The position numbers were made by a program, and so were the translations under genes. A DNA stretch of 64,000 nt from a virus (lineage: Duplodnaviria > Heunggongvirae > Uroviricota > Caudoviricetes): the IMG/VR virus record IMGVR_UViG_3300045993_000138; one strand, 5' to 3'. Below are positions 741 to 35,822 of the stretch, one piece after another. Under the pieces are notes generated by a model. That model saw only the letters and a program-made list of their open reading frames with translations, did no database searches and was not told where the DNA came from. The stretch's first letter is position 1, and each line of letters begins with the position of its first letter.

Positions 741-1454
741 ATGTCGATCACGTTCACCCGCAAGCCCTATGATTACAAGCTCTCTTATGAGCAGAATCAG
801 AATGCCGTGCCTGTCACAAAGACCATTGCCGAAGGCAGTGTTCTGTATTGCAATGAGGAATACCGTCGCATCATGAGTGATGAATGGGGTTCGTTCCCGT
901 TTGCGCATTTCGTGGATGACAATGGCATCCTGAGTTCGCAGGAAATCGAGAATTCTGACACGATCACGGTCGATGTTTCGGAAGATGCCTATACCCGCTA
1001 TTACGATGCACAGTATGACTATGCACTGTCCAAGATCACTGCGGACACCGAAGCCGACCTAAAGGTTATCCGTAAGGGTGACACTGCCCATGTCTATAAG
1101 GGTCGCAGTGGCAAGGGTACTATTGGTAAGGTAGTAGTAGTGATCGACGCGAACTACCCCATCAGCCCGTGGAAGAGCATCCATTGCCATAAGTTTGCCA
1201 TTGCTACCAGTGACCGTATGGGTCCGGTGGTTGCCAAGAATGGTAAGACATACAATAACTACCTTGATATCGTATGGGCATATGATCTCAATTGCGAAAA
1301 GATTGGTATTCCCGCGATTGACATGGATGCGGTACAGATTGAGGCGAAGCGTTGTGCATTGCACGCGGTTGCCTCGCTGCGCCATAATGTCAAGGCACAT
1401 GCCGATCAGGCTGCGCGTTTCGGGTATCGTTACGGCAATCAGAAGGCTGCGTGA
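741..1454 (+). CDS. hypothetical early protein
   Basis: 237 aa ORF directly after promoter and RBS (aagga). Confidence 0.8.
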   Translation: MSITFTRKPYDYKLSYEQNQNAVPVTKTIAEGSVLYCNEEYRRIMSDEWGSFPFAHFVDDNGILSSQEIENSDTITVDVSEDAYTRYYDAQYDYALSKITADTEADLKVIRKGDTAHVYKGRSGKGTIGKVVVVIDANYPISPWKSIHCHKFAIATSDRMGPVVAKNGKTYNNYLDIVWAYDLNCEKIGIPAIDMDAVQIEAKRCALHAVASLRHNVKAHADQAARFGYRYGNQKAA

Positions 1455-10873: not shown

Positions 10874-12070
10874 ATGAATTTATTTAGAAACCTGAGTGAT
10901 ATAGACAAGAGCAAATACTTCATAGCAGAATACAAAGTCAAGAGTACAACTACTCTGAGAGACGCTGCATGGAATATTGCTATTGGTCAGAGCGTAGGAA
11001 ATCCTAACGTCAGAAACGAATGGGAATCTGATGAACTCTTTGAAAACTATAGCTGCAAGATCATTGGTGATGAAGCCAAGCTTAGTACAGTCAAGAATGG
11101 TAAGGTAAAGATTGCCTTTCCAGTGATCAATACTGATTGGCAGACTGATGGCATTAGTCATCTACTTTGCCAGCTAATGGGTGGACATGTAGACATCGAA
11201 ATTATTAAGTCCTGTAGACTTGTAGGATTGAAGCTTCCAAAGAGTGTTACCAAGAATTTCCTCGGACCAAAGTACGGTATCTCAGGATTCCGTAAGTATA
11301 CTGGTCAGTATGACAAACCACTATTCGGAAGTATCGTAAAACCAAAGATTGGTCTTACACCAGATAAACTTTTGGATATGGTAAAGCAGATGGTAGACGG
11401 TGGTGTGGATTTTATTAAAGAAGACGAGATTATGAGTAATCCTGTTTTCTGCCCACTAGAAAAGCGCGTTGGTATGATTTCAAACTATCTCGCAAATCAA
11501 AGTCGCAAGGTTGTATTCTGTCACACAATTAATGCGGATCCACATGTAATAGTAGATCGTGTCAAGTCTGTATATAATGCTGGTGGCACAGGAGTACACA
11601 TCAACGTCTGGTCTGGTCTTGGAGTCTATAACAGCATTCGCAAGCTAGATCTTCCAATGTTCCTACACTTTCAGAAGAGTGGTGATAGAGTCTTTACGGA
11701 TAAGAAGAATAAGTACAGTATTTCATGGTCAGTAGTCTGTATGCTCGCGGGGCTGATGGGCGTAGATACAATCCAGACTGGAATGATTGGTGGTGGCTAT
11801 AGTGATGATGATGAAGTAGAACTTAAGAAGGCAATGAAGATTCTATTGAAGCATAACGTAACACCAGTACTCAGTTGTGGATTTCACCCCGGATTAGTCG
11901 ATAAGGTTACGGGTCTAGTAGGAAAGAATTATATGGCAAATGTTGGTGGAGCAGTTCACGGACATCCAATGGGAACAATCGGTGGTGCCAGAGCAATGCG
12001 ACAGGCAATCGACGGCACGCACGGGATAGAATATCAACAAGCAATTCAAAAATGGGGTTTAGCACAATGA
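10874..12070 (+). CDS. RuBisCO-like protein (form IV RLP)
   Basis: KPKIGL, GGVDFIKEDE (carbamylation Lys/Mg motif), SCG and GGAVHGHPMG motifs; lacks residues equivalent to E60, N123, H294, K334. Confidence 0.9.
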   Translation: MNLFRNLSDIDKSKYFIAEYKVKSTTTLRDAAWNIAIGQSVGNPNVRNEWESDELFENYSCKIIGDEAKLSTVKNGKVKIAFPVINTDWQTDGISHLLCQLMGGHVDIEIIKSCRLVGLKLPKSVTKNFLGPKYGISGFRKYTGQYDKPLFGSIVKPKIGLTPDKLLDMVKQMVDGGVDFIKEDEIMSNPVFCPLEKRVGMISNYLANQSRKVVFCHTINADPHVIVDRVKSVYNAGGTGVHINVWSGLGVYNSIRKLDLPMFLHFQKSGDRVFTDKKNKYSISWSVVCMLAGLMGVDTIQTGMIGGGYSDDDEVELKKAMKILLKHNVTPVLSCGFHPGLVDKVTGLVGKNYMANVGGAVHGHPMGTIGGARAMRQAIDGTHGIEYQQAIQKWGLAQ

Positions 12071-13100: not shown

Positions 13101-13828
13101 GAACAGCATTAATATTGAGTGGGCAGATTCGCAGCGCAAGAGATTGCTACGCGAACACAAAAAAGTATTTAATAGATCAGTATAATGCTGATGTATTCAT
13201 TTCCACATGGACTCCAACATCGAATGTCGTTGCTGCATTGGGTAATGCATTTACCAATGACATTTCTATGGATGAAATGTTTGATATGTACAGACCAAAG
13301 GCATGTATCATAGAAGAATTCGACACACTGCCAATGCTTAGAAAGCTGCGACTGAATATCGATGTTTACAATAACAAAACTGCGTATGATGGAACTTGGG
13401 TAGAAGAGACGAACATAGAGAATGTGTTCTTACAGAATTTCAGAAGGGCACAAGGGTTTGAACTTTTACACAATTACTCCAATGATAATGATGTGTGCTA
13501 TGAGCGTGTTATTCTGAGCAGGTTTGATTTAGACATTCATACATTTCCAATCATAGAACCAGAGAATAATGAAATTTGGATTCCAACAGGTCCAAATGTG
13601 GATAGTCCAGAATACCACTATGGCGGCATTCGCGACTTGATGGCAATAGGAGGACAGAATGAAATGTCATACTATTGTGACCTATACAATCATCTGAACT
13701 TTTATGTTCGCCAATGTGAATTTGGACTTCATCCAGAATCGATCATCAGAAGGCATTTAGAAAGATATGGATTCAAGATCAAGCGTTTTCCAATGGAATC
13801 CAGCCTACGCGGAAATCCGGTTCTTTAA
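13097..13828 (+). CDS. putative glycosyltransferase-like protein
   Basis: ALILSGQIRS, DVFISTW, SRFDL, HPE pattern resembling glycan-locus proteins (recognised from memory). Confidence 0.55.
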   Translation: MRTALILSGQIRSARDCYANTKKYLIDQYNADVFISTWTPTSNVVAALGNAFTNDISMDEMFDMYRPKACIIEEFDTLPMLRKLRLNIDVYNNKTAYDGTWVEETNIENVFLQNFRRAQGFELLHNYSNDNDVCYERVILSRFDLDIHTFPIIEPENNEIWIPTGPNVDSPEYHYGGIRDLMAIGGQNEMSYYCDLYNHLNFYVRQCEFGLHPESIIRRHLERYGFKIKRFPMESSLRGNPVL

Positions 13829-13832
13829 TAGC

Positions 13833-13861
13833 TTGCTATTAAGAAACTAGTATGGTATACT
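13833..13861 (+). promoter_or_regulatory. sigma70-type promoter
   Basis: TTGCTA-17-TATACT. Confidence 0.55.
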
Positions 13862-13991
13862 GTTACACAGAGAGGTAGATAATGTTTCATTACAAAGAGA
13901 AGTATCAGAAGCATCTGGACGTAATATTGGGATTCGCAATGCTTGTTGCGGTAATTATATTGATTTATGGATTCTTTAAGAGGATTTGATT

Positions 13992-14225
13992 ATGAATTGT
14001 GTAAGTGAGTTTGTAGAGATCATTGAATCTAAGAATCGTAAGTACGATAGTCTTTCTAAGTCGTATGATGAACTCTACGATAGATTCCAGTGGCTTTTGA
14101 AGAATGTTGTCGAAAGCGAAGATGGTGTATTTACCTTTCCAGATGGTGAATTTTACGTTTGCAAGGAAAGGATTGTACAGAAGTACAGAGAAGCGTCCGA
14201 TATTGGATTTGGAGTAAAGTCATGA
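13992..14225 (+). CDS. hypothetical protein
   Basis: aagagga RBS, ATG 13992. Confidence 0.55.
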   Translation: MNCVSEFVEIIESKNRKYDSLSKSYDELYDRFQWLLKNVVESEDGVFTFPDGEFYVCKERIVQKYREASDIGFGVKS

Positions 14226-14575
14226 GTGATGAAGAAAGCATGAAGCAATTTGATCTTGAGCAATCTATCATGGATTGTTGGGACATTACAGAAGATCTTG
14301 ATACTCTATTAGAGGCAGTCATCGAACATCCAGATTTTGACAAGGATAAGATTTCGAATGTCCTGATGGGTGTGACAGAACTATACAATCTAAAGTTCGA
14401 CAAGTGTTTCCGTAATTTCGAAGCGTTCCTAAAGGACTACTACGAATTAAGAAACAGACTGGAAGAGATTGAGAGTGATAAGGGTGGATACATTCGCGGG
14501 TATAGAGCGAGTGGTGAAAATCGTCCACCAGTGAATTTTGATGATGATCTGGACGATATCGATCTAGAACAGTAA
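14222..14575 (+). CDS. hypothetical acidic protein
   Basis: ATG 14222 overlapping upstream stop. Confidence 0.65.
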   Translation: MSDEESMKQFDLEQSIMDCWDITEDLDTLLEAVIEHPDFDKDKISNVLMGVTELYNLKFDKCFRNFEAFLKDYYELRNRLEEIESDKGGYIRGYRASGENRPPVNFDDDLDDIDLEQ

Positions 14576-14639
14576 CGCTAAGTACTTGATAGAAAAGGGT
14601 GGTCCTGTAAGTGCTTGAAATATTAAGGATTTTTGGCAC

Positions 14640-14668
14640 TTGACTTTTAAGGTAGGATCACGTAGAAT
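14640..14668 (+). promoter_or_regulatory. sigma70-type promoter
   Basis: TTGACT-17-TAGAAT preceded by two TAAGT-N2-TTGA motifs (14579, 14608). Confidence 0.65.
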
Positions 14669-14693
14669 GATTCTTGTCGGTTGAGGAAATCGA

Positions 14694-14915
14694 ATGAAGG
14701 TTGAAGAACTGAAAGAGGTTTTAGAAGAGAACGAGATACTGTATAGATTCAACGATACGCTTCGCCTATGGCAAGTAATGATTGACGATGTGATTGTCTA
14801 CATTGCACCAAAGACGCTGGAGTTATTGAACATCGATGAATTCGGTGTCTACCTATCTACACAGATGATGTTAGGAATTGCAAATATTTCACAAAAAGAG
14901 ATAACTCTTCACTGA
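14694..14915 (+). CDS. hypothetical protein
   Basis: gagga RBS, 73 aa. Confidence 0.6.
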   Translation: MKVEELKEVLEENEILYRFNDTLRLWQVMIDDVIVYIAPKTLELLNIDEFGVYLSTQMMLGIANISQKEITLH

Positions 14916-14922
14916 AATTTGC

Positions 14923-14951
14923 TTGACTTTTACAAAAGTTTGCTATATAAT
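14923..14951 (+). promoter_or_regulatory. sigma70-type promoter for the RNA island
   Basis: TTGACT-17-TATAAT upstream of the hammerhead and tRNA array. Confidence 0.75.
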
Positions 14952-15252
14952 GTATAGACTGAGTAATTTTTAGGTTCAAACTGTTAGGAAATGATTAGGA
15001 AAATGTTCAAACGAGATACACATAGTTATTTTATTCCCGCCATACAAGGAGGGAATAGTTATCCCTACCTGATGGGATTAAAATATCAGGTATCTGCGAA
15101 CTAGTTTTCCAGATCAGCTTTTTAACAACATAACGTATAATTCGGCTAACTAGCCGCCAGTCTATCAGCATTCTGCTACAGACTAGATCATGCCCATCGG
15201 GTGTGTTCTCCAAGACGCATAGCGACTTGGTAAGTGCTAGTCATTATTTAAA

Positions 15253-15335
15253 CGTCTCTGACGAGCCAGTGAAATTCTGGCGAAACATGCGGCTGTGCTG
15301 AGAGTCAAAGTATTCTCGCCAGTCGGTGTCAGACG
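15253..15335 (+). ncRNA. type I hammerhead ribozyme
   Basis: stem I CGTCT/AGACG, core CTGACGA 15258-64, stem II GCCAG/CTGGC, GAAAC 15282-86, long stem III hairpin, GTC cleavage triplet 15328-30. Confidence 0.85.
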
Positions 15336-15503
15336 CCAATACTACCTAGTGGTGCGGTATTGGGAGTTGGTCGAGTTGTTGGAAACTTCACGATGCGAAT
15401 CGCAGAGTAACCGAAAATCGACGGTGTTCCGAGGTTAGACATATCCGATAGCATTGGTACCAAGTGCGTGTAGGCATCCAACGAACGAACCACGCATTTT
15501 AAT

Positions 15504-15578
15504 GCGTCCATAGTATAAAGGCTATTATGAGTGCCTTCCAAGCACATGATGCGAGTTCGATTCTCGCTGGACGCTCCA
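15504..15578 (+). tRNA. tRNA-Gly(TCC)
   Basis: cloverleaf, loop CTTCCAA, TTCG T-loop, CCA. Confidence 0.9.
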
Positions 15579-15585
15579 AGTTTAT

Positions 15586-15661
15586 TGGTAGGTGACTAGA
15601 GTGGTAATAGCCGCGACTGTTAATCGCGTATTCACAGGTTCGATCCCTGTCCTACCAGCCA
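15586..15661 (+). tRNA. tRNA-Asn(GTT)
   Basis: loop CTGTTAA, CCA. Confidence 0.9.
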
Positions 15662-15667
15662 ATTTAA

Positions 15668-16040
15668 CGTGATGGAAATGTGGGTTAAAATCCCGCAAGG
15701 GCAACTATACTGCTTGATGGTCTAAAGACTAAGACTCCATCCATTTATTCGACTACGCTGAGTAATCGCGAGTCAAACGATATCCCACTGATTACACTAA
15801 ATTGTGGGGCGTGTATGATGGAGGAAGGGCATTCCATCAATAAAAAAGCAACCCGTCCGTGCGATAGCAATGACCCACGGCGCAGAAGATACATAAGGTA
15901 GTGATACGAGGGAAATCCCCTATCACAATGAGAAATGTATCGATTGACTCGCTGCGAAATGAACGAGAGTCTAACCATGATCGTAGTTGCCTACGGAAGA
16001 GGGACTGATCCAGTCAGTTCAAAACGGCATCAACTGGAAG
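15668..16040 (+). ncRNA. unassigned large structured RNA
   Basis: long-range helices 15700-07/15984-91, 15768-76/15944-52, 15714-20/15834-40, 15735-41/15817-23, 15888-94/15935-41; no plausible + strand ORF. Confidence 0.6.
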
Positions 16041-16045
16041 TTTTC

Positions 16046-16120
16046 GGGGAATTAGTATAATGGCTATTACTGTGCGTTTGCAACGCATTGACGAGGGTTC
16101 GACTCCCTCATTCTCCACCA
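16046..16120 (+). tRNA. tRNA-Ala(TGC)
   Basis: loop TTTGCAA, G3:U70, CCA. Confidence 0.9.
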
Positions 16121-16126
16121 ATTTTC

Positions 16127-16212
16127 GGGTGAACGGTAACGACGGCGAGTTACACCAGACTGTAAATCTGATGCCTCCGGCTCAGTAGGTTCGAATCCTA
16201 CTTCACCCACCA
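16127..16212 (+). tRNA. tRNA-Tyr(GTA)
   Basis: loop CTGTAAA, long V arm, CCA. Confidence 0.88.
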
Positions 16213-16314
16213 ATATGAAAAACAGGGCTTGCCCTGCTGTGTAAGGAAGTGTCTCTTGTAGAATTACTCCAAGTCAGCCGTTTGAGAGGGCACCGATACC
16301 CTTCTCGCCTTTTC

Positions 16315-16389
16315 GGGGAATGTGCTAGGAACACGGATTTGCCTTGCAAGCAGATTGCCAGATCGGAGCGTAACCGATATTCTCCACCA
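16315..16389 (+). tRNA. atypical tRNA-Ala(TGC)
   Basis: GGGGAAT/ATTCTCC-ACCA, loop CTTGCAA, T-loop AGCGTAA. Confidence 0.7.
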
Positions 16390-16397
16390 ATTTACTT

Positions 16398-16474
16398 GGG
16401 TCCGTAGCTCAAATGGACAGAGCAGCAGACTTTTAATCTGAAGGCTGTGGGATCGTACCCCACTGGACCCACCA
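16398..16474 (+). tRNA. tRNA-Lys(TTT)
   Basis: loop CTTTTAA, T-loop ATCGTAC, CCA. Confidence 0.85.
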
Positions 16475-16662
16475 AGTTTTGTTGAGAGTAGATGTCGAGA
16501 AATCTGTCGCCTAATTAGCGGCAAGAAAGATGAGGTTTCCCAGTGGGATCGGCTGCATCAAGTATTGACTATTACTGCGTACCACTAACCCTGCGCGCTT
16601 TATTACAAGGGAAAAATGGTTTCGAATATAGGTGGCGAAACGTCTCAACAAATTTATTTTAT

Positions 16663-16741
16663 CTGAGTGTGGGCTAATTGGCAAAGCTACCTGATTTGGA
16701 GTCAGGACATCATGTAGGTTCAAGTCCTACCATTCAGACCA
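16663..16741 (+). tRNA. tRNA-Pro(TGG)
   Basis: loop TTTGGAG, CCA. Confidence 0.9.
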
Positions 16742-16746
16742 ATTTT

Positions 16747-16849
16747 GCGTCGGCAAGTGAGAGGGCAATTTAGGTGTGCTCAAACCAAGTAACATGGATC
16801 CAATGTGAAAGGTATCTTTCTGTAGGTTCAAATCCTACCTGATGCTCCA
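16747..16849 (+). tRNA. tRNA-like RNA, anticodon undetermined
   Basis: acceptor GCGTCGG/CTGATGC-TCCA and canonical T arm, irregular middle. Confidence 0.5.
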
Positions 16850-16857
16850 AGTTTTAT

Positions 16858-16952
16858 CCCCGATAGCACAGGCGTGCGGGTGGGTTTTATAAACCCGCGA
16901 GAGTTGCCAGATTAGCGACAACGGGAAGGATCGTTACCTTCATCGGGGACCA
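16858..16952 (+). tRNA. tRNA with UAU anticodon and long variable arm
   Basis: CCCCGAT/ATCGGGG-ACCA, loop TTTATAA, ~26 nt V region, T-loop ATCGTTA. Confidence 0.7.
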
Positions 16953-16958
16953 AATTAT

Positions 16959-16987
16959 TTGACATTTAAAGAAATGTCCTATATAAT
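16959..16987 (+). promoter_or_regulatory. sigma70-type internal promoter
   Basis: TTGACA-17-TATAAT just before tRNA-Pro(GGG). Confidence 0.7.
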
Positions 16988-16996
16988 AGATCATAT

Positions 16997-17072
16997 CAGG
17001 GTGTAGCTCAATTGGTAGAGCGCAACGTTTGGGGCGTTGATGTTAAGAGTTCGAGTCCCTTCATCCTGACCA
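16997..17072 (+). tRNA. tRNA-Pro(GGG)
   Basis: loop TTGGGGC, CCA. Confidence 0.88.
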
Positions 17073-17089
17073 ATTTAAAGTGAGAAATT

Positions 17090-17761
17090 ATGTTTGTATA
17101 TAAAAGTGGTATGAACAATACTGAAAGAACATTCACAGACATTTTTAATCACGGTACTTGGGGACCAGTGAAGAGTGGAGACGGATCCACGATCAGATAC
17201 ACTGAAAACCTAAGGAAAGAACTTCCGCTTGTATTTGGAAAGTTCGGTGTGCAGACATTTCTAGATGCGCCTTGTGGCGACATGACATGGATGCCACTAG
17301 TATTGAAAGAATCAAACATCAATTATATTGGTGGAGATATTGTCGGAAACATGATTGAACAGCATACCGCACAGTATGCAAATGAAAGAACTAAGTTCCA
17401 ACATTTGGATATTTGTCGCGACGCTCTTCCATCAGCAGATCTTTGGATGTGTCGAGATTGTTTGTTTCATCTGTGTGAAGAAGAAATCTTCATGGCACTG
17501 AACAACTTTGTGAAGTCAGATATCAAATATATTCTAACTTCGACACACTTCAGTGATTCGATAAACAATATCACTGGCGGTAGTTACAATGGGAATTTTG
17601 ATATTGTAACTGGTGGATTCAGGCTTCTCAATTTGTTTGATAAGCCATACAATTTTCCAGAACCGCTTTATAGAATTGCTGATGCTCTTGTAGGGTTTCC
17701 GAGACGCGAAATGTGCGTCTGGTCTAGAGAGCAGATTGCAAATGTTTTAATGGGTGGATAG
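17090..17761 (+). CDS. class I SAM-dependent methyltransferase
   Basis: FLDAPCGD motif I, GGDIV, RDCLFHL. Confidence 0.8.
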   Translation: MFVYKSGMNNTERTFTDIFNHGTWGPVKSGDGSTIRYTENLRKELPLVFGKFGVQTFLDAPCGDMTWMPLVLKESNINYIGGDIVGNMIEQHTAQYANERTKFQHLDICRDALPSADLWMCRDCLFHLCEEEIFMALNNFVKSDIKYILTSTHFSDSINNITGGSYNGNFDIVTGGFRLLNLFDKPYNFPEPLYRIADALVGFPRREMCVWSREQIANVLMGG

Positions 17762-17826
17762 TATAATGGTAGTACAGCAGCCTCCAAATCTGCACGGTCA
17801 GGGTTCGAATCCTTGTCTGCCCGCCA
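17752..17826 (+). tRNA. tRNA-Trp(CCA)
   Basis: loop CTCCAAA, CCA; overlaps last codons of upstream CDS. Confidence 0.85.
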
Positions 17827-17957
17827 AATGATAGTATCGCTGTCTGGTCTGTATTAAATTACGGGATGGCACCGAAGGGTGTAAATCGACTACAGTGATA
17901 GTGGATCAAGCTTCCACCGTTTTGTGGTGTTTCGAAAAACCACACATAGTTTTCAAT

Positions 17958-18035
17958 GCGTTTGTCGTATAACTGGCAAATTATACCTGACTCTTACTCA
18001 GGCTGATCAGGGTTCGAATCCCTGCGAACGCACCA
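17958..18035 (+). tRNA. tRNA-Lys(CTT)
   Basis: loop CTCTTAC, CCA. Confidence 0.82.
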
Positions 18036-18042
18036 ATTTTAT

Positions 18043-18119
18043 GCGCCTATAGTGAAATGGAATTATCACAAGAGTCTACGAAACTCTTATTACAGGTTCG
18101 AATCCTGTTAGGCGTGCCA
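18043..18119 (+). tRNA. tRNA-Arg(ACG)
   Basis: loop CTACGAA, CCA. Confidence 0.88.
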
Positions 18120-18150
18120 AACATCGTCGGTTTCAACATCGACGTATCGA

Positions 18151-18281
18151 TTAGTAGGAAGACGTTGGTTCGAATCCAACTGGCATAGTGATCAAACCTC
18201 TGTGGACGCACAGTGTAAGCGGAAGCGCGAGTTGATCGACAAAACTATGCTGTAGCTTAGTGGAAGAGCGTCCTGCGCTAA
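18151..18281 (+). ncRNA. circularly permuted tRNA mimic (YrlA Y-RNA-like architecture)
   Basis: T arm 18164-80, acceptor-like helix 18181-89/18244-52 closed by a branched insert, D arm 18253-69, terminal helix GTAGGA/TCCTGC. Confidence 0.7.
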
Positions 18282-18285
18282 ATTT

Positions 18286-18360
18286 GCTCTCAAAGCATTG
18301 ACGGCGATGCGCGGGTTTTGTAAGCCTGATAACTCAGTTCGACTCCGAGTGAGAGCACCA
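18286..18360 (+). tRNA. tRNA-Thr(TGT)
   Basis: loop TTTGTAA, CCA. Confidence 0.88.
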
Positions 18361-18363
18361 AAT

Positions 18364-18462
18364 TTGAGTCAGAAGTGTAGTGGTTGCACGGGAAGTCCGA
18401 GACGCATAATCTGCGGAGTAGGCATCCAAATGCCAAGAGTGGTTCGATTCCACATGACTCAA
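18364..18462 (+). ncRNA. tRNA-like RNA with branched anticodon domain, no CCA
   Basis: TTGAGTCA/TGACTCAA stem, D-like arm, GTGG-TTCGATT-CCAC T arm. Confidence 0.5.
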
Positions 18463-18472
18463 TGTTTTATAT

Positions 18473-18547
18473 GGTCCCATCGTCTAGCGGTAAGGATAAG
18501 AGACTTTCAATCTTTTGACAGGGGTTCGATTCCCCTTGGGACTACCA
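18473..18547 (+). tRNA. tRNA-Glu(TTC)
   Basis: loop CTTTCAA, CCA. Confidence 0.9.
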
Positions 18548-18552
18548 ATTTC

Positions 18553-18630
18553 GGATACGTAGCATAAATGGCTTGTGCGTCACTCTCATAAAGTGAAATG
18601 GTATTGGTTCAATTCCAATCGTATCCTCCA
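18553..18630 (+). tRNA. tRNA(CAT), Met or Ile2
   Basis: loop CTCATAA, CCA. Confidence 0.82.
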
Positions 18631-18637
18631 GTTTTAT

Positions 18638-18711
18638 GCGCCCTTCGTATAGAAGCATTACCTTGGTTTTACATACCAAAGAAGGCGGAGCATTACCGTC
18701 AGGGCGTACCA
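18638..18711 (+). tRNA. tRNA-Val(TAC)
   Basis: loop TTTACAT, T-loop AGCATTA, CCA. Confidence 0.75.
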
Positions 18712-18788
18712 AATTGCCATTGAAAAGATGGATAGAGAAAGTCGGTCGAATCTAGACTTGACAGGGGGAGAGTCTCCACCAATTTTAT

Positions 18789-18861
18789 AGCGGGTAAGTA
18801 GACGATTGCTACGCTGCGTTCATACCGCAGAGAGGATGTGAGACTCATCATCCCGCTACCA
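18789..18861 (+). tRNA. atypical tRNA-Met(CAT)
   Basis: CTGCG-TTCATAC-CGCAG arm, T-loop TGAGACT, CCA. Confidence 0.6.
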
Positions 18862-18868
18862 ATTTTAA

Positions 18869-18943
18869 CGCCTGATAAGTTAACGATATAGACTAGTCAC
18901 CTGATCAGTGAACAGTGTGGTATGAAATCCACAAAGGCGACCA
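18869..18943 (+). tRNA. degenerate tRNA-Ile(GAT)-like
   Basis: CGCCT/AGGCG-ACCA, loop CTGATCA, irregular D and T arms. Confidence 0.45.
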
Positions 18944-19136
18944 TTTTTGTAGTCTTGCGCGAGGCAAGGTAAAAGGCACTGCGGGTAGAAATACCGATAA
19001 ACATCGAAGCGCAGTTTAAATAGATTGTGTTCAGCCTACTACAATTTTACAACACTGAGCGGAGAGATCACCGCACGGAGGACGGCGCAAACACTCACCT
19101 TAAAAATGAGAACAATTAGCCATCCCAACTTTTTAT

Positions 19137-19210
19137 AGGACCGTAGCTCAAAAGTAGAGCAATGTACTGATAATGCATAGACGAAGGAGCGTTACCTTCT
19201 GGTCCTACCA
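19137..19210 (+). tRNA. tRNA-Ile(GAT)
   Basis: loop CTGATAA, T-loop AGCGTTA, CCA. Confidence 0.8.
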
Positions 19211-19216
19211 ATTTTT

Positions 19217-19291
19217 GCTTGTATCGTATAACGGCTAATACGATCTCCCGATTAGAGATTTATCAGGGTTCGAATCCTTGTACAAGCACCA
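19217..19291 (+). tRNA. tRNA with non-canonical anticodon loop (CCGATTA)
   Basis: good acceptor, D and T arms and CCA; C33 and U37 instead of U33 and purine 37. Confidence 0.65.
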
Positions 19292-19621
19292 AGTTTTGAT
19301 GTGGCTCGCGTAAGTCTTAGCGGACATGACGCTTTGTTGTGATGCTCTGAATGTATACTAGTACTTTCATTCAGGCTAAACTTCGTAAATTCGGGGAACA
19401 GAGGCTTCAACGAGTTCTTTGTTCAATAGCAAACCACATCAAATTTAACGTTCCGTTGTTAGCGGATAGTGTGCCCACACGATGAGAAGTAGAGTGACAT
19501 CTACGGGACGGTTCTAGTCAAGCCTTACTAGCGTTAGCAGCACGATAGTCTTTCTGTGTCGTGAAGTGGGGTGACGGTTCAAGCCGAATTACCACCGATA
19601 GAAAGAATGCACCTAATTTAT

Positions 19622-19698
19622 GGCTGGTTAGAATAGTGGCTTAATTCACTACCCTGTCACGGTAGATATCACGGGTTCGAATCCCGTACCAGTCGCCA
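19622..19698 (+). tRNA. tRNA-Asp(GTC)
   Basis: loop CTGTCAC, CCA. Confidence 0.9.
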
Positions 19699-19767
19699 AC
19701 AACAGACAAAGTATTAAACAAAAACGTACTTTGTCTACCTAAATACCTTTTGTTTAAGAAGGTATTC

Positions 19768-20256
19768 ATGAGAAGAATCAACACACTCATAGTAGCAGTT
19801 ATCGCATTAGTGTTATTTACGATTGGTTGGTTTCTTCCTCTGCATAGTTACATCACTCCAAGAGAGGGTGTAGGTTACGCACTAGGATGGATCGGTGCAA
19901 TTGGAATGATGCTGGCATCTTCTTATGCACTGAGAAAAAGGTTTCATAGATTGTTTGATTGGATTGGAAACCATAGAATGGTTTTCGATGTCCACATAAT
20001 CTTCGGAATCTTTGGACCGATAATGATTATGTATCACTGTGGTTACAGGCTTGGAGCAACGAATAGCAATGTCGCATTGTATTCAATGATCGCCGTGGTC
20101 GCAAGTGGTGTAATTGGAAGGTATCTATATATTAGAGTGGATAGAAGTGCGCTAATTAAGAAACTGTTTTCTTGGTGGCACGCAGTTCACCTTCCGTTTC
20201 TAGGTATGTTAATTGTAACGACAATCTTTCATGTCCTAGCATCGTTTTTATACTGA
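19768..20256 (+). CDS. membrane protein with ferric-reductase-like His motifs
   Basis: several TM helices; H-IIFGIFGP-IMIMYH and WWHAVHLPF...FHV. Confidence 0.7.
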   Translation: MRRINTLIVAVIALVLFTIGWFLPLHSYITPREGVGYALGWIGAIGMMLASSYALRKRFHRLFDWIGNHRMVFDVHIIFGIFGPIMIMYHCGYRLGATNSNVALYSMIAVVASGVIGRYLYIRVDRSALIKKLFSWWHAVHLPFLGMLIVTTIFHVLASFLY

Positions 20257-20259
20257 TTC

Positions 20260-20334
20260 GCCCTTATAGTACAATGGCAAGTACGCATCATTGGTAATGA
20301 TGAAATCAAAGTTCAATTCTTTGTTGGGGCACCA
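20260..20334 (+). tRNA. tRNA-Thr(GGT)
   Basis: loop TTGGTAA, CCA. Confidence 0.85.
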
Positions 20335-20352
20335 AAATTTGAGGATAAGATT

Positions 20353-20730
20353 ATGGTTAAAAGATTTACAATGCCTTGTCATGTTTCTCACCGACATGGA
20401 CTTCTAGAACAAGCCAACGGCTATATAATTCAGGCGAGTGATTATGATGTTCTATTTGGAGAGAAGACAAAGTTAGAAGAAAGAAATGCTCTTCTTCAAA
20501 AGCAACTAAATGAACTTCAAAAGAAATACGAAGTTTTGGAAAAGCAAAAAAATCCAAAGGTTGCTAAAAAGAAGAAAGGTGGTTGGATTGTTAAAGTGCC
20601 AGTAGATGAAGATGAATGGATCTATCTAACTGATCTTGCAACCAACGAAAGAATGATTTTTGAAACCGAAGAAGAAGCCGTCAAGTATGGAACTCTTCAA
20701 GGTGTTCATAAGGTAGAGAAGATTAAATAG
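20353..20730 (+). CDS. hypothetical coiled-coil protein
   Basis: gagga RBS, 125 aa. Confidence 0.7.
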   Translation: MVKRFTMPCHVSHRHGLLEQANGYIIQASDYDVLFGEKTKLEERNALLQKQLNELQKKYEVLEKQKNPKVAKKKKGGWIVKVPVDEDEWIYLTDLATNERMIFETEEEAVKYGTLQGVHKVEKIK

Positions 20731-20736
20731 TTTTAT

Positions 20737-20811
20737 GCGGGGATCGCATAATGGTAGTGCCAATGCTTGCCAAGCATTTGTTCGTGGGTTCGATTCCCAT
20801 TCCCCGCTCCA
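20737..20811 (+). tRNA. tRNA-Gly(GCC)
   Basis: loop TTGCCAA, CCA. Confidence 0.9.
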
Positions 20812-20815
20812 ATTT

Positions 20816-20894
20816 GCAAAGTGAGCTAGTGTGGTCATTTCAGCGCACGCCTGAAGAGCGTGATAACCAAGTTCGATTCTTGGACTTTGCACCA
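20816..20894 (+). tRNA. tRNA-Phe(GAA)
   Basis: loop CTGAAGA, CCA. Confidence 0.88.
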
Positions 20895-20900
20895 ATCAAC

Positions 20901-20972
20901 GGGGTCGGGGTTTTGCAGCAGATGCTCCTGCGAAATTAAACCTTAGAGTATTAGGTTACTCCGATTCCACCA
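20901..20972 (+). ncRNA. D-armless tRNA-like RNA with G3:U70
   Basis: GGGGTCG/CGATTCC-ACCA, GAGTA/TACTC T-like arm, one long internal hairpin. Confidence 0.5.
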
Positions 20973-20977
20973 AATTT

Positions 20978-21052
20978 CGCGAAGCTGCTCGGTGAAAGGG
21001 CGTCTACCATTTAAGTAGTTGGTCGGTGGTTAAATTCCATCCTTCGCGACCA
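20978..21052 (+). tRNA. atypical tRNA-Lys(TTT)-like
   Basis: CGCGAAG/CTTCGCG-ACCA, loop CATTTAA (A33), T-loop TTAAATT. Confidence 0.5.
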
Positions 21053-21123
21053 GAGTACTCCACTTAAGATACTGTATCTTCGTCTTTTGTGGGAAGGGGT
21101 GAATACAGCACCCCGAGAGTTTT

Positions 21124-21200
21124 GCTAGTGTGGCGCAATTGGCAGTCGCGTGTGCCTTAGAAGCACAATGTTGTAGGTTCGACTCCTATCACTAGCACCA
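21124..21200 (+). tRNA. tRNA-Leu(TAG), short V arm
   Basis: loop CTTAGAA, CCA. Confidence 0.85.
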
Positions 21201-21207
21201 ATTTTAT

Positions 21208-21285
21208 GCTCCTATCGTCTAGATAGGCTCAGGACACAAGGTTCTCAACCTTGGTACGTGGGTTCGAATCCCGCTAGGAGCGCCA
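21208..21285 (+). tRNA. tRNA-Glu(CTC)
   Basis: loop TTCTCAA, CCA. Confidence 0.88.
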
Positions 21286-21289
21286 GTTT

Positions 21290-21394
21290 AGGATGATTAC
21301 AGCAACTCAATTTAACTCGCCAAACTTGAGTGGGAGTCCAATGGGGACGGTGCGCTAGGGTTCGAATCCCTCCTTAATAGCACTATTCATCCTG
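21290..21394 (+). ncRNA. unassigned RNA of the stem-WCAGCAA family (copy A)
   Basis: AGGATGA/TCATCCT closing stem, ACAGCAA, internal D-like and T-like hairpins. Confidence 0.5.
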
Positions 21395-21406
21395 TTTAGT
21401 TTCTAT

Positions 21407-21484
21407 GGTGATTGTATCATAATTGGTTAATGACCCCGACTGTGAATCGGGATTATGCGAGTTCAACTCTCGTCAATCACCCCA
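21407..21484 (+). tRNA. tRNA-His(GTG)
   Basis: loop CTGTGAA, G-1:C73, CCA. Confidence 0.9.
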
Positions 21485-21493
21485 AGTTTTTAT

Positions 21494-21567
21494 TCTTCCC
21501 TCGTCTAACGGCAGGACGCAATCCTCTGAAGTTTGCTATCGTGGTTCGAATCCACGGGGAAGATCCA
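21494..21567 (+). tRNA. tRNA-Gln(CTG)
   Basis: loop CTCTGAA, CCA. Confidence 0.82.
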
Positions 21568-21642
21568 ATTATCAGTCAACGGTGTAATGACTGCCATTCG
21601 TTAAGAAATGGTGCTGTATGACAGTAGTGAAAAACCGTCTAT

Positions 21643-21717
21643 TCTCCCTTCGTCTAACTGGCAGGACATCTGACTTTGAATCAGCGAATTGAGGTTCGAA
21701 TCCTTGAGGGAGAGCCA
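21643..21717 (+). tRNA. tRNA-Gln(TTG)
   Basis: loop CTTTGAA, CCA. Confidence 0.88.
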
Positions 21718-21747
21718 ATTTACATGTAACCGAAAAAGGAGGTTATT

Positions 21748-22251
21748 ATGGGAGCTACATGGCTCATAAGTGACACTCATTTCGGTCACGAAAATTGCTG
21801 CACTAGGTTCAAGAGAGAAGATGGTTCTCCCCTGCGACCTTTCAAGAATGCAGAAGAAATGAATGCGGAAATGATCAAGCGTTGGAATGCAAGAGTGCGT
21901 CCTGACGACAAGGTTTACCATCTTGGGGATGTCGTAATCAACAAGAAGTATCTTTGGATCGTTTCTCAACTAAACGGTAACAAGAGACTTGTCCGTGGCA
22001 ATCACGATATATTCAAGACGAAGGAATACATCGATGCTGGATTCAAGGAAGTGTATGGAGTTCGTGTCCTAGAGGATATGATTCTTTCTCACATTCCACT
22101 ACATCCAGAATGTATCACGGAAAGATTCTTTCATAACGTTCACGGACACCTTCACGCAAATACGTTGAAGGATAAGAGATATATAAATGTAAGTGTGGAG
22201 CAAATTGATTACGCTCCTATCAGCATTGAAGAAGTTCGTGCAAGATTTTAA
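21748..22251 (+). CDS. calcineurin-like metallophosphoesterase
   Basis: DTHFGH, GD, GNHD, SHIP, HGHLH motifs. Confidence 0.9.
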   Translation: MGATWLISDTHFGHENCCTRFKREDGSPLRPFKNAEEMNAEMIKRWNARVRPDDKVYHLGDVVINKKYLWIVSQLNGNKRLVRGNHDIFKTKEYIDAGFKEVYGVRVLEDMILSHIPLHPECITERFFHNVHGHLHANTLKDKRYINVSVEQIDYAPISIEEVRARF

Positions 22252-22252
22252 C

Positions 22253-22343
22253 GGAAGATGATCCAGTGAGGCACTGGACCTGTTTTGAACGCAGTGGGAC
22301 TGGTGATGAGCCAGTTGGGGATCGATACCTCCGTCTTCCGCCA
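22253..22343 (+). tRNA. tRNA-Ser(TGA)
   Basis: loop TTTGAAC, long V arm, G73, T-loop ATCGATA. Confidence 0.8.
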
Positions 22344-22347
22344 TTTT

Positions 22348-22440
22348 TGTTTCTATGTTTGCATAACGTGAGGAATTGGTATACTTAGCACCGATTCTAT
22401 TGATCGGCGCAATGTCTAGGTTCGAATCCTAGTAGAAACA
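22348..22440 (+). ncRNA. tRNA-like RNA without CCA
   Basis: TGTTTCTA/TAGAAACA stem, Leu-like D arm, 8 bp anticodon-like stem, canonical T arm. Confidence 0.45.
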
Positions 22441-22446
22441 TTTTAT

Positions 22447-22536
22447 AGAGAGTTGCCAGAGTGGTCTATTGGCGCATCTTGGAAAGGTGATGGTGGCGAA
22501 AGCTACACAAGGGTTCAAATCCCTTACTCTCTGCCA
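22447..22536 (+). tRNA. tRNA-Ser(GGA)
   Basis: loop TTGGAAA, long V arm, CCA. Confidence 0.88.
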
Positions 22537-22638
22537 CTACCTCGGTTGGACATATGTGCTGATCGAATGCATGTATCATAGAGGATACATTGCTTGGAAT
22601 GCGACAAATAAACAAACTGCAATCCATTTTTAGTTTTT

Positions 22639-22715
22639 GCCCGTGTGACGGAATTGGCATACCTTGCTCGCTTAGAACGAGTAGCCTAAGAGTTTGAATC
22701 TCTTCATTCGCACCA
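22639..22715 (+). tRNA. degenerate tRNA-Leu(TAG)
   Basis: loop CTTAGAA but mismatched acceptor stem, T-loop TTTGAAT. Confidence 0.55.
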
Positions 22716-22830
22716 AATAGTCTGAGTCGCACTCAGAATGATAAGAGACGATGGTGAGCCTAAAGCGGTGGGGCTTATAAAATCCATTACAAACGTCTAG
22801 GGTAAAACTCCATACGCCGCGCCCAATTTT

Positions 22831-23057
22831 ATATCAAGTCGAGCAATCGCTGTTATACTAGGTTCAATAATACCTTAGTATAATGGAGGTAAGTTCGCGA
22901 TACACCCAAGGCTGGTAGAAGTCGAAAGACGTTATACTACTGAATACGGAAAGGGGTGTACAAGCCAAACAGTCCTAGTCAAGCCTTAACGTAACGGACG
23001 GGTTGGTGCATAGACAAATGATTGCATAGAACAGAATCGCGGCTATGGACTTGATAT
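22831..23057 (+). ncRNA. rnpB: RNase P RNA, minimal form (227 nt)
   Basis: P1 22831-40/23048-57, P2 GCAATC/GATTGC, P3, CR-I GAGGTAAGTTCGCGA, P4 with bulged U pairing TCGCGGCT, P5, P6 pseudoknot AAGGCT/AGCCTT, CATAGACAAATGATTGC and ACAGAATCGCGGCTA conserved tracts. Confidence 0.88.
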
Positions 23058-23066
23058 ATCGTTTTA

Positions 23067-23280
23067 AGGAATGTTACAGCAAACCAAAAATTCCTATGAT
23101 AAAGGACTGGTTGAGGTTCGATTCCTCAAGGTTCCACCAAAAACACATTGTGAGGGGCTAGTTGCATGGCACACACGAACAAAGTGCAACCCATTGTAAT
23201 AGTGATCATAAAAGCAATGAGCAGTGTGTTTCTGATGGGGCTTTAGTGTAATGGTAGCACAGTAAATAAAAACATTCCTG
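23067..23280 (+). ncRNA. permuted (two-piece) tRNA-like RNA, WCAGCAA family copy B
   Basis: 3' tRNA part (T arm, AGGTTCC-ACCA at 23129-39) precedes 5' part (GGGGCTT + D arm at 23237-60); closed by AGGAATGTT/AACATTCCT. Confidence 0.7.
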
Positions 23281-23288
23281 TTTTCTTT

Positions 23289-23375
23289 GGGATCAATTCA
23301 GCAAATCAAACAATAGGTTCGATTCCTATATTTTCCGATTCGGAGAGTTATGACCAAAGGTTGGTCGATGATCCC
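23289..23375 (+). ncRNA. permuted tRNA mimic, WCAGCAA family copy C
   Basis: GGGATCA/TGATCCC stem; order T arm, hairpin acceptor helix, D arm. Confidence 0.7.
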
Positions 23376-23380
23376 GCTTT

Positions 23381-23457
23381 GCATCTGTGACGTAATTGGC
23401 AAACGTGTTACCTTGAGAGGGTAAATTCTGTGGGTTCAAATCCCACCAGATGCACCA
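23381..23457 (+). tRNA. tRNA-Leu(GAG), short V arm
   Basis: loop TTGAGAG, CCA. Confidence 0.85.
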
Positions 23458-23495
23458 AATTCTAAATAGTTGATACCATTCGAAAGGAATCGACT

Positions 23496-23972
23496 ATGAA
23501 CATAAAGTATCTTTGGAACAACAAATGGAGCATACTAAAGAATGCTAATGTGTGGATTAACAAAAGTCCACTAGCAGTTGTTATTGCCATAGTATTCATC
23601 ATTGAACCAGTAGTATCTGGTACAATAGGAATCATTGGAGACTATACTTGGGTTAGACAAAAATTAGATCCAAGTCAAAGACCAGTGACTGCTGCCGAGT
23701 TCAAATTGCTTGACGATCAGGTTGATGCCATTCAGGCGTCCCTTGTCGAAATCAATAGTAAACTTGTGGTGAAGAAAGTCATCACTCCTGATGCACCTAA
23801 AGCAAAAGCTAAACCAGTTGTTGTGGTTGTGGAAGCAGATGCTTCTGGTATATCAAACATACCATCAGTTGGACTTTCAGCACTTAACAAATTTGAAGTT
23901 GCTAAAGTTGAACGTGAAAAGTTATCCAAGAAATTGGATGTGGCTTATCTAGAAAAGAAACCAAAGTTTTAA
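23496..23972 (+). CDS. hypothetical membrane-anchored protein
   Basis: aagga RBS, one TM helix then coiled coil. Confidence 0.65.
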   Translation: MNIKYLWNNKWSILKNANVWINKSPLAVVIAIVFIIEPVVSGTIGIIGDYTWVRQKLDPSQRPVTAAEFKLLDDQVDAIQASLVEINSKLVVKKVITPDAPKAKAKPVVVVVEADASGISNIPSVGLSALNKFEVAKVEREKLSKKLDVAYLEKKPKF

Positions 23973-23975
23973 ATT

Positions 23976-24061
23976 GGAAGATTAACTGTACAGGGTGCAG
24001 ACTCGCTTCGAAAGCGATGGGTCGGGAAACTGATGGGGATCGATACCTCAATCTTCCTCCA
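23976..24061 (+). tRNA. tRNA-Ser(CGA)
   Basis: loop TTCGAAA, long V arm, T-loop ATCGATA. Confidence 0.8.
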
Positions 24062-24068
24062 ATTTTAT

Positions 24069-24143
24069 AGTCCATTAGTTCATCAGTAGAATGCTTCATT
24101 GACATTGAAGAGGTAACAGGGGCAGCACCTGTATGGACTACCA
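24069..24143 (+). tRNA. tRNA-Val(GAC)
   Basis: loop TTGACAT, T-loop GGCAGCA. Confidence 0.8.
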
Positions 24144-24147
24144 ATAT

Positions 24148-35552: not shown

Positions 35553-35822
35553 CTGGTACGTTGATAAGCAATTATCTGAATGAACTTTAGTAAGGCTTGG
35601 AACACGGGATCTGCGATGTTCCCCACCTCCACCATATTATATAGGCAACTCCACCAATGAGTTGCCATCTATGGGGGTGAATAGTTTCGACTCCGAGAGA
35701 TAGAAAGATCGTAGTGTCAGTAAATCAGTAAATGCAAACGATAATTCATTTACACCTATGGCAATTGCTGCTTAATCGCACTTTTGTACAATGAGATTAG
35801 CCCACTTGGAAACAGAACGGGC
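35553..35822 (+). ncRNA. ssrA: permuted two-piece tmRNA
   Basis: acceptor 3' end CACCTCC-ACCA (35624-34) precedes 5' end GGGGGTG (35673-79, G3:U70); tag ANDNSFTPMAIAA* at 35734-75; CTTGGAAACAGAAC tract; outer ends approximate. Confidence 0.92.

Follow-up and report, generated by a model that had tools for sequence, protein, structure and literature searches.

We identified a complete type I hammerhead at positions 15253-15335 (+ strand) of a 64,000-nt stretch of viral DNA (IMG/VR record IMGVR_UViG_3300045993_000138), referred to below as the window. On the evidence of its sequence, the element is probably an active ribozyme of a large phage-borne class, which has a 5-bp stem II and the loop UGAAAUU, and lies in the non-coding leader of a tRNA operon. 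The ribozyme type is well known; its context ahead of a phage tRNA array is absent from the papers that we found, yet hammerheads in or at such arrays recur (loci L032 and L110, and genome G002).

The window is part of an uncultured freshwater T4-like myovirus, whose baseplate wedge protein shares 27-34% identity with its counterparts in Stenotrophomonas, Rhizobium and cyanophage T4-likes. The GC content is ~40%, and a sequencing-run look-up found the window sequence in pond, wetland, peat and lake metagenomes. The tRNA array (15504-25197, + strand) comprises 29-32 genes co-oriented with the hammerhead. We searched the region 14900-25300 for other families of small self-cleaving RNAs, HDV-like ribozymes included, and found none at E ≤ 1. 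Within the array, the segment 22831-23057 matches RNase P RNA over its full length, though below threshold (RF00373, 27 bits vs 84, E 1.1e-4, model positions 1-288). Elsewhere in the window, a permuted tmRNA can be found at 35582-35775 (+ strand; RF04321, 62.6 bits against an Rfam cut-off of 47), and the ORF at 10874-12070 encodes a RuBisCO large-chain catalytic domain (PF00016, E 6e-39). This ORF is neighboured by methyltransferase and nucleotidyl-transferase-like genes in an operon that is syntenic in loci L001-L005 and L110-L113.

Architecture and class of the hammerhead

A first-pass annotation made from the sequence had proposed a full type I hammerhead with intact stems at this site, and every element that it named is in place. 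The 5′ strand of stem I, CGUCU (15253-15257), pairs with AGACG (15331-15335), both in the sequence itself and in the alignment to our covariance model R1 (described below). It is followed by C3-A9 of the catalytic core, CUGACGA (15258-15264), which is invariant across the class with the exception of position 7. Stem II (15265-15281) consists of five base pairs, including G10.1-C11.1, formed by GCCAG (15265-15269) and CUGGC (15277-15281) around the loop UGAAAUU. The second part of the core, G12 A13 A14 A15.1 (GAAA, 15282-15285; again supported by the R1 alignment), leads into stem III, a 45-nt imperfect hairpin in the predicted fold (15285-15329), which opens with the pairs A15.1-U16.1 (A15285-U15329) and C15.2-G16.2 (C15286-G15328) and whose apex varies in locus L107 and in L110 and sequencing run X9. 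Since the cleavage triplet GUC occupies 15328-15330, hammerhead geometry makes C15330 the H17 residue and predicts a cut (GUC^A) between C15330 and A15331, the same position as in the first-pass annotation. The 3′ strand of stem I (15331-15335) would accordingly form the 5′-OH end of the downstream product.

The element is assigned to type I because stem I is open while stems II and III are capped by loops. CUGACGA (15258-15264) and GAA (15282-15284) match the invariant columns of 41 class members, stems I and II are 5 bp each, an NUH triplet is directly followed by stem I, and the R1 alignment contains no non-canonical pair. Pair-keeping changes were found in the helices of the class as a whole, in stem III of L107 and in stem II of L032. 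Stem I is invariant in the window lineage and is therefore uninformative on covariation; its sequence, CGUCU/AGACG, deviates from the class consensus RCCNN/NNGGU. Only 4 nt (AUUU) stand 5′ of stem I in the window. We set aside a pseudoknot between loop II and the flanks of stem I, complements to loop II being no commoner there than in the reversed sequence used as a control, and could identify no tertiary contact of the kind that fast cleavage at physiological Mg2+ calls for.

Shuffled 64-kb windows contain the bare core (CUGANGA, a hairpin of 4 bp or more, and GAAA) ~0.18 times each, which makes the motif weak evidence when taken by itself. We searched IMG/VR with a degenerate pattern in which the core and loop II were fixed and stem II was left free (CTGANGAG-N4-TGAAATT-N4-CGAAAC), which gave 101 matches against ~0.2 expected by chance by our estimate; an exact 29-mer of the core had no match in IMG/VR. 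Among the 108 pattern occurrences in the fetched loci (window included), 101 can be parsed as type I hammerheads that possess stem I, U16.1, H17 and a stem III hairpin. The length of stem III ranges from 11 to 93 nt in the class, compared with 45 nt in the window.

R1 was built from a MAFFT alignment of 41 independent IMG/VR hammerheads, with the window left out. In this alignment 97.4% of cells are paired and 12 of the 15 pairs show changes on both sides, including four of the five pairs of stem II, whereas sliding the partner columns by 1-3 positions lowers pairing to 24-39%. The invariant pairs are those expected of a hammerhead, namely G10.1-C11.1, A15.1-U16.1 and C15.2-G16.2. Against the window, R1 matches 15249-15339 with 52.2 bits (E 5.8e-13) and no non-canonical pairs; the next-best hit scores 12.7 bits, which leaves the hammerhead as the sole R1 match in the 64 kb. 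This score is partly circular, as the pattern that selected the training set came from the window's own core and loop II; stem I, the closure of stem III and the GUC triplet lie outside that pattern. The default filters cause members with a long stem III, the window element among them, to be mis-parsed, and R1 has to be run with filters off.

A check with Infernal and the Rfam hammerhead models, as the first-pass annotation had advised, proved uninformative. At gathering score, none of the hammerhead families (RF00163, RF00008, RF02275-7) matched at the window, and under the Rfam 15 gathering thresholds none matched in nine control loci of the same class (L094, L033, L011, L099, L032, L107, L028, L022 and L016), each of which holds from 1 to 11 R1 matches with a best score per locus of 44-75 bits. 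The miss therefore reflects the models and not the element, and the phage type I class with the loop UGAAAUU is in effect unannotated by Rfam. In E-value mode, the best match to the 621-nt leader was RF00008 (21.2 bits against a cut-off of 48.5, E 0.071). We rejected the type III register implied by this match, which is without a stem I helix and has two mismatches in stem III.

Competing fold and metatranscriptome contigs

The minimum free energy fold of the element is not that of a hammerhead: CUGACG of the catalytic core (15258-15263) pairs with UGUCAG (15327-15332), the strand that contains the cleavage site. Adopting a hammerhead-compatible fold costs 2.5 kcal/mol relative to the full ensemble, which ranks 60th of 63 in the class (fourth-worst), and such folds make up ~1.7% of the nearest-neighbour ensemble. 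All three relatives carry the competing helix unchanged. With this helix and an atypical stem I, and with no contact identified between loop II and stem I, the ribozyme may cleave slowly or only under certain conditions.

Carried further, the same observations would describe a hammerhead that is conserved but held mostly in an inactive fold, serving as a slow or conditional switch (set by Mg2+, a factor or the speed of transcription) or mainly as a structural element within the leader RNA, and not as a constitutive cutter. We consider this unlikely. Nearest-neighbour energies omit the non-canonical core pairs and tertiary pairs that stabilise a hammerhead, and four class members bear a similar or higher cost. 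Folding during transcription would favour stems II and III, as these can form while the competitor strand has yet to be made. The catalytic nucleotides, moreover, are all 100% kept, as selection for catalysis predicts. We continue to favour an active ribozyme, with the competing helix as a possible brake on its rate.

Among the assembled contigs of public runs, two from metatranscriptomes of separate studies extend over 15342-15661 and 15354-15648. Both begin 11-23 nt past the predicted cut and stop where tRNA-Asn ends on its 3′ side, and neither has a loose end upstream. A DNA contig runs across the cut site, whereas neither RNA contig spans 15330/15331. The depth of these contigs is 2.6-4.5 and they may contain DNA, and their absent cover upstream of 15342 is uninformative on the 5′ product. 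Their start positions can be taken as a weak hint of cleavage in vivo.

The leader RNA and its relatives

A sigma-70-type promoter (TTGACT, 17-nt spacer, TATAAT; 11 of 12 consensus positions) can be found at 14923-14951 on the same strand as the hammerhead. It is the best site within 13800-16100, and both hexamers are kept in L107 and L110. The end of its -10 hexamer (14951) lies 302 nt upstream of the hammerhead, and the first tRNA gene, tRNA-Gly (UCC), starts at 15504, 169 nt downstream, in line with the ~300 and 170 nt given in the first-pass annotation. No terminator-like site was found between the promoter and the tRNAs.

Between the promoter and the ribozyme lies a structured 5′ leader RNA of ~295 nt (14958-15252, + strand), its start being placed from the promoter. 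Its minimum free energy is -84.6 kcal/mol (z -4.47), and none of 200 shuffled sequences folds as well. The leader returned no Rfam family at E ≤ 10 and no blastn match among 50,697 phage records. A small ORF of 37 aa within it (14991-15104) is unlikely to be coding, since the stretch is substitution-free against L110 and the Shine-Dalgarno spacing is poor. The spacer between the ribozyme and tRNA-Gly (15336-15503, + strand) has an unexceptional fold (z -1.37); it is conserved at 15336-15372 and 15418-15503 and indel-variable at 15373-15417. This 45-nt hairpin segment gives way to a replacement of 14 nt in L110 and in runs X9 and X19, and of 1 nt in X20.

One relative, L107, is a 2.3-kb JGI contig that is ~99.7% identical to the window over 14685-15400. 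Its stem III apex (2216-2253, corresponding to 15292-15325 of the window) carries about 12 substitutions and a 4-nt insertion with pairing kept throughout. Two of the pairs have changed on both sides (U15294-A15321 to A-U and G15295-C15320 to A-U), and four show single pair-keeping changes (G15292-U to A-U, C15298-G to U-G, G-C15315 to G-U, and G15304-U15313 to G-C). The apex thus forms an island of local hypervariation, or of hairpin swap, within ~700 nt that are otherwise ~99.7% identical. We used only the stem III pairs for this comparison; RNAalifold on four sequences picked the competing helix, and MAFFT misaligned the 3′ end of L032.

A second set of relatives, L110-L113 (longest contig 210.8 kb), was reached through a 73-aa ORF just upstream of the leader (74% amino-acid identity). 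They carry a hammerhead at the same position (52.3 bits with R1), ahead of an array of 27 tRNAs, and share with the window the order ORF, leader, hammerhead and tRNAs. Between the window and L110, the flanking ORFs are 73-77% identical and the first two tRNAs 53-59% identical, whereas the leader (14958-15252) is 97.3% identical. All eight of its changes fall in the hairpin at 15188-15205 and are compensatory, and the remaining 277 of 277 leader positions are identical. The hammerhead is 96.4% identical as a whole and 100% identical outside the stem III apex. Identity then runs at 97% over 15336-15372, the segment 15373-15417 is replaced, and 15418-15503 is 92% identical. A lake-water run (X9) carries a variant of the L110 type, with the change in the hammerhead likewise confined to the stem III apex.

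For the upstream 243-aa gene, IMG/VR contained no relatives. In L001-L005 (38-51% identity in this gene), it is followed by a DNA polymerase region and no tRNA array, so these loci say nothing on the ribozyme; the contig of a 96% relative in the same gene stops before the hammerhead site.

These comparisons support the suggestion in the first-pass annotation that the hammerhead parts the tRNA transcript from a structured RNA on its 5′ side, in that the upstream RNA is structured, conserved and, in the hairpin at 15188-15205, altered by compensatory changes. The stretch 14958-15372 looks like a functional RNA outside the known Rfam families. The same pattern of identity could be read differently, as a mobile or recombining cassette of leader and hammerhead that spreads among related phages, for which the site before the tRNAs is a landing place without a role in the operon. 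The ~415-nt block 14958-15372 is essentially identical while its genome neighbours differ by ~25%, and its left borders differ, as the block includes the ORF at 14694-14915 in L107 and excludes it in L110. Hammerheads of the class also occur in many unrelated phages and contexts, among them the single copy of genome G004, which stands away from tRNAs. We regard a cassette as quite improbable, however, as the locus has no flanking repeats, integrase or homing gene, and the order of ORF, leader, hammerhead and tRNAs is kept in L110-L113. Neither the leader nor the spacer (15336-15503) nor the gap at 15662-16045 has homology (blastn, nhmmer) to the flanks of ~100 other hammerhead loci, and we found no sign of a cassette RNA common to these loci. 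Such changes as have occurred are compensatory and lie in hairpins, which fits long-term purifying selection on the RNA.

Chance resemblance without ribozyme function would accord with the frequency of the bare core in shuffled sequence and with the absence of an Rfam family at its cut-off, but we regard it as already refuted by the E-value of 5.8e-13 against R1, the conservation with compensatory changes in L107, L110-L113 and run X9, the near-twin in L032, and the equal failure of Rfam on class control members.

Comparable loci, known systems and the proposed role

The near-twin, L032 (IMGVR_UViG_3300047547_000041; genome G001), belongs to a complete 144.8-kb genome with terminal repeats and exactly one R1 match. 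Its phage has no relation to that of the window that could be detected from the neighbouring ORFs. The two hammerheads are near-identical from stem I through the core and stem II into the beginning of stem III, and stem II shows a single compensatory change (window pair A15268-U15278 to G-C). In L032, the hammerhead begins right after the stop codon of an ORF, and the 3′ strand of its stem I abuts tRNA-Leu (CAA), the first of six co-oriented tRNAs, so that the predicted cut leaves a leader of 6 nt and would nearly replace RNase P. The window and L032 elements are alike in being single copies in large phage DNA at the head of a co-oriented tRNA array, with nearly the same core, stem II and loop II, and they differ in that L032 has neither a long leader RNA nor a spacer. 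We found no paper describing the L032 hammerhead. The six-tRNA array of this region (L109, 8515-9983; G001) includes a tRNA with anticodon CUA that ARAGORN calls tRNA-Pyl, which is possibly an amber suppressor, as in recoded phages.

Two further complete genomes each carry one R1 copy, located inside the tRNA region in G002 (L029) and away from tRNAs in G004 (L076). L008, L009, L010, L018 and L020, together with ~20 further IMG/VR loci, form a near-identical group in which a minimal class hammerhead (stem III of 11 nt) lies ~13 nt after a promoter of the form TTGACA-17-TATACT and directly 3′ of a permuted tmRNA gene (in L010, tmRNA at 1278-1764 and core at 1232-1260, minus strand). The ribozyme in this group would remove the extreme 5′ end of the transcript. 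In L099 (5974-12700) there are 11 R1 matches in ~7 kb, and in L093 (5949-9171) there are six; a hammerhead occurs between nearly every gene at these two loci, matching the layout of multi-hammerhead prophages (PMC3088659).

Hammerheads located beside genes have been described by the hundred in bacteria and prophages, and it was proposed that they process long phage transcripts, cutting polycistronic RNA into units (Perreault et al., 2011; PMC3088659); that paper makes no mention of a tRNA context. Like the phage and prophage type I hammerheads (PMC3088659; Rfam clan CL00010, RF00163/RF00008), the window element has the conserved core, the three-helix junction, an open stem I and a GUC triplet, and is intergenic on the sense strand of a long phage transcript. 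Unlike them, it is a single copy in a wholly non-coding leader before tRNAs, not between protein genes, its stem III is long (45 nt), its stem I is off the class consensus, and its class lies below the Rfam threshold.

A connection between self-cleaving RNAs and phage tRNAs is known from HDV-like theta ribozymes, which occur 3′ of tRNAs in gut Caudoviricetes (Kienbeck et al., 2024; PMC10879173); the first-pass annotation had cited such ribozymes as trimmers of 3′ trailers beside phage tRNAs, which agrees with that work. Hammerheads go unmentioned there. The theta ribozymes and the window element have in common that a small self-cleaving RNA sits in a phage tRNA cluster and is proposed to make RNA ends without host nucleases. 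Theta ribozymes, however, fold as an HDV-like double pseudoknot, stand 3′ of tRNAs, trim trailers and cut at their own 5′ edge, whereas the window element has the hammerhead fold, stands 5′ of the array and has its predicted cut near its own 3′ edge, 173 nt before the first tRNA; it is thus not a theta or HDV-like ribozyme. A full-text literature search found no paper linking natural hammerheads with phage tRNA arrays.

The tRNA cluster of phage T4 offers another point of comparison: small stable non-tRNA structured RNAs (species 1 and 2, rnaC/rnaD) share the tRNA transcript, and they are freed by host RNases, not by a ribozyme.

For the window, we infer cleavage in vivo, the stability of the products and the purpose of the hammerhead from this layout. 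Transcription would start at the sigma-70-type promoter (14923-14951) and pass through the structured leader, the ribozyme and a 173-nt spacer before reaching the tRNA genes. The ribozyme would cut after C15330 as soon as the polymerase has completed stem III and the 3′ strand of stem I. The upstream product would be an RNA of ~370 nt ending in the compact ribozyme fold with a 2′,3′-cyclic phosphate, and the downstream product a pre-tRNA transcript beginning with 5′-OH AGACG. Because a type I hammerhead cuts near its own 3′ edge, the ribozyme would stay on the upstream product and leave five stem I bases downstream. As 173 nt remain upstream of tRNA-Gly, the 5′ ends of the tRNAs would still be made by RNase P, and it is doubtful that the ribozyme contributes to tRNA maturation itself. 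The hammerhead may serve as an insulator and end-maker that frees the conserved leader RNA, with a protected 3′ end, without a host endonuclease.

In general, cyclic-phosphate and 5′-OH ends slow exonucleolytic or 5′-end-dependent decay. Such ends might do the same for the window RNA, which is conjecture on our part, and they may alter the access of RNase E or of defence nucleases, as the first-pass annotation had supposed.

A broader proposal would make the ribozyme the 3′-end maker of a new and very strongly conserved phage regulatory RNA of ~370 nt and, at the same time, an instance of a general, so far undescribed phage habit. Hammerheads and a mini RNase P RNA, the latter encoded by the phage further along the array, would then mature the tRNA island independently of host endonucleases, and the cut would be tuned or protected by the hypervariable stem III and the competing helix. 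We put this forward tentatively, as a possibility that is less likely than not.

Hammerheads are common in phages, and their biological roles are still mostly guesswork. The window offers a testable setting, with one ribozyme per 64 kb, in a non-coding transcript, between an extremely conserved leader and ~30 tRNAs, and the natural variants with compensatory changes and the independent case of L032 add to its testability. Also relevant to annotation is the finding that a class represented by 100 copies or more in IMG/VR escapes the current hammerhead models of Rfam. The position of this hammerhead extends the link between phage ribozymes and tRNAs from the 3′ side, where theta ribozymes are found, to the 5′ side.
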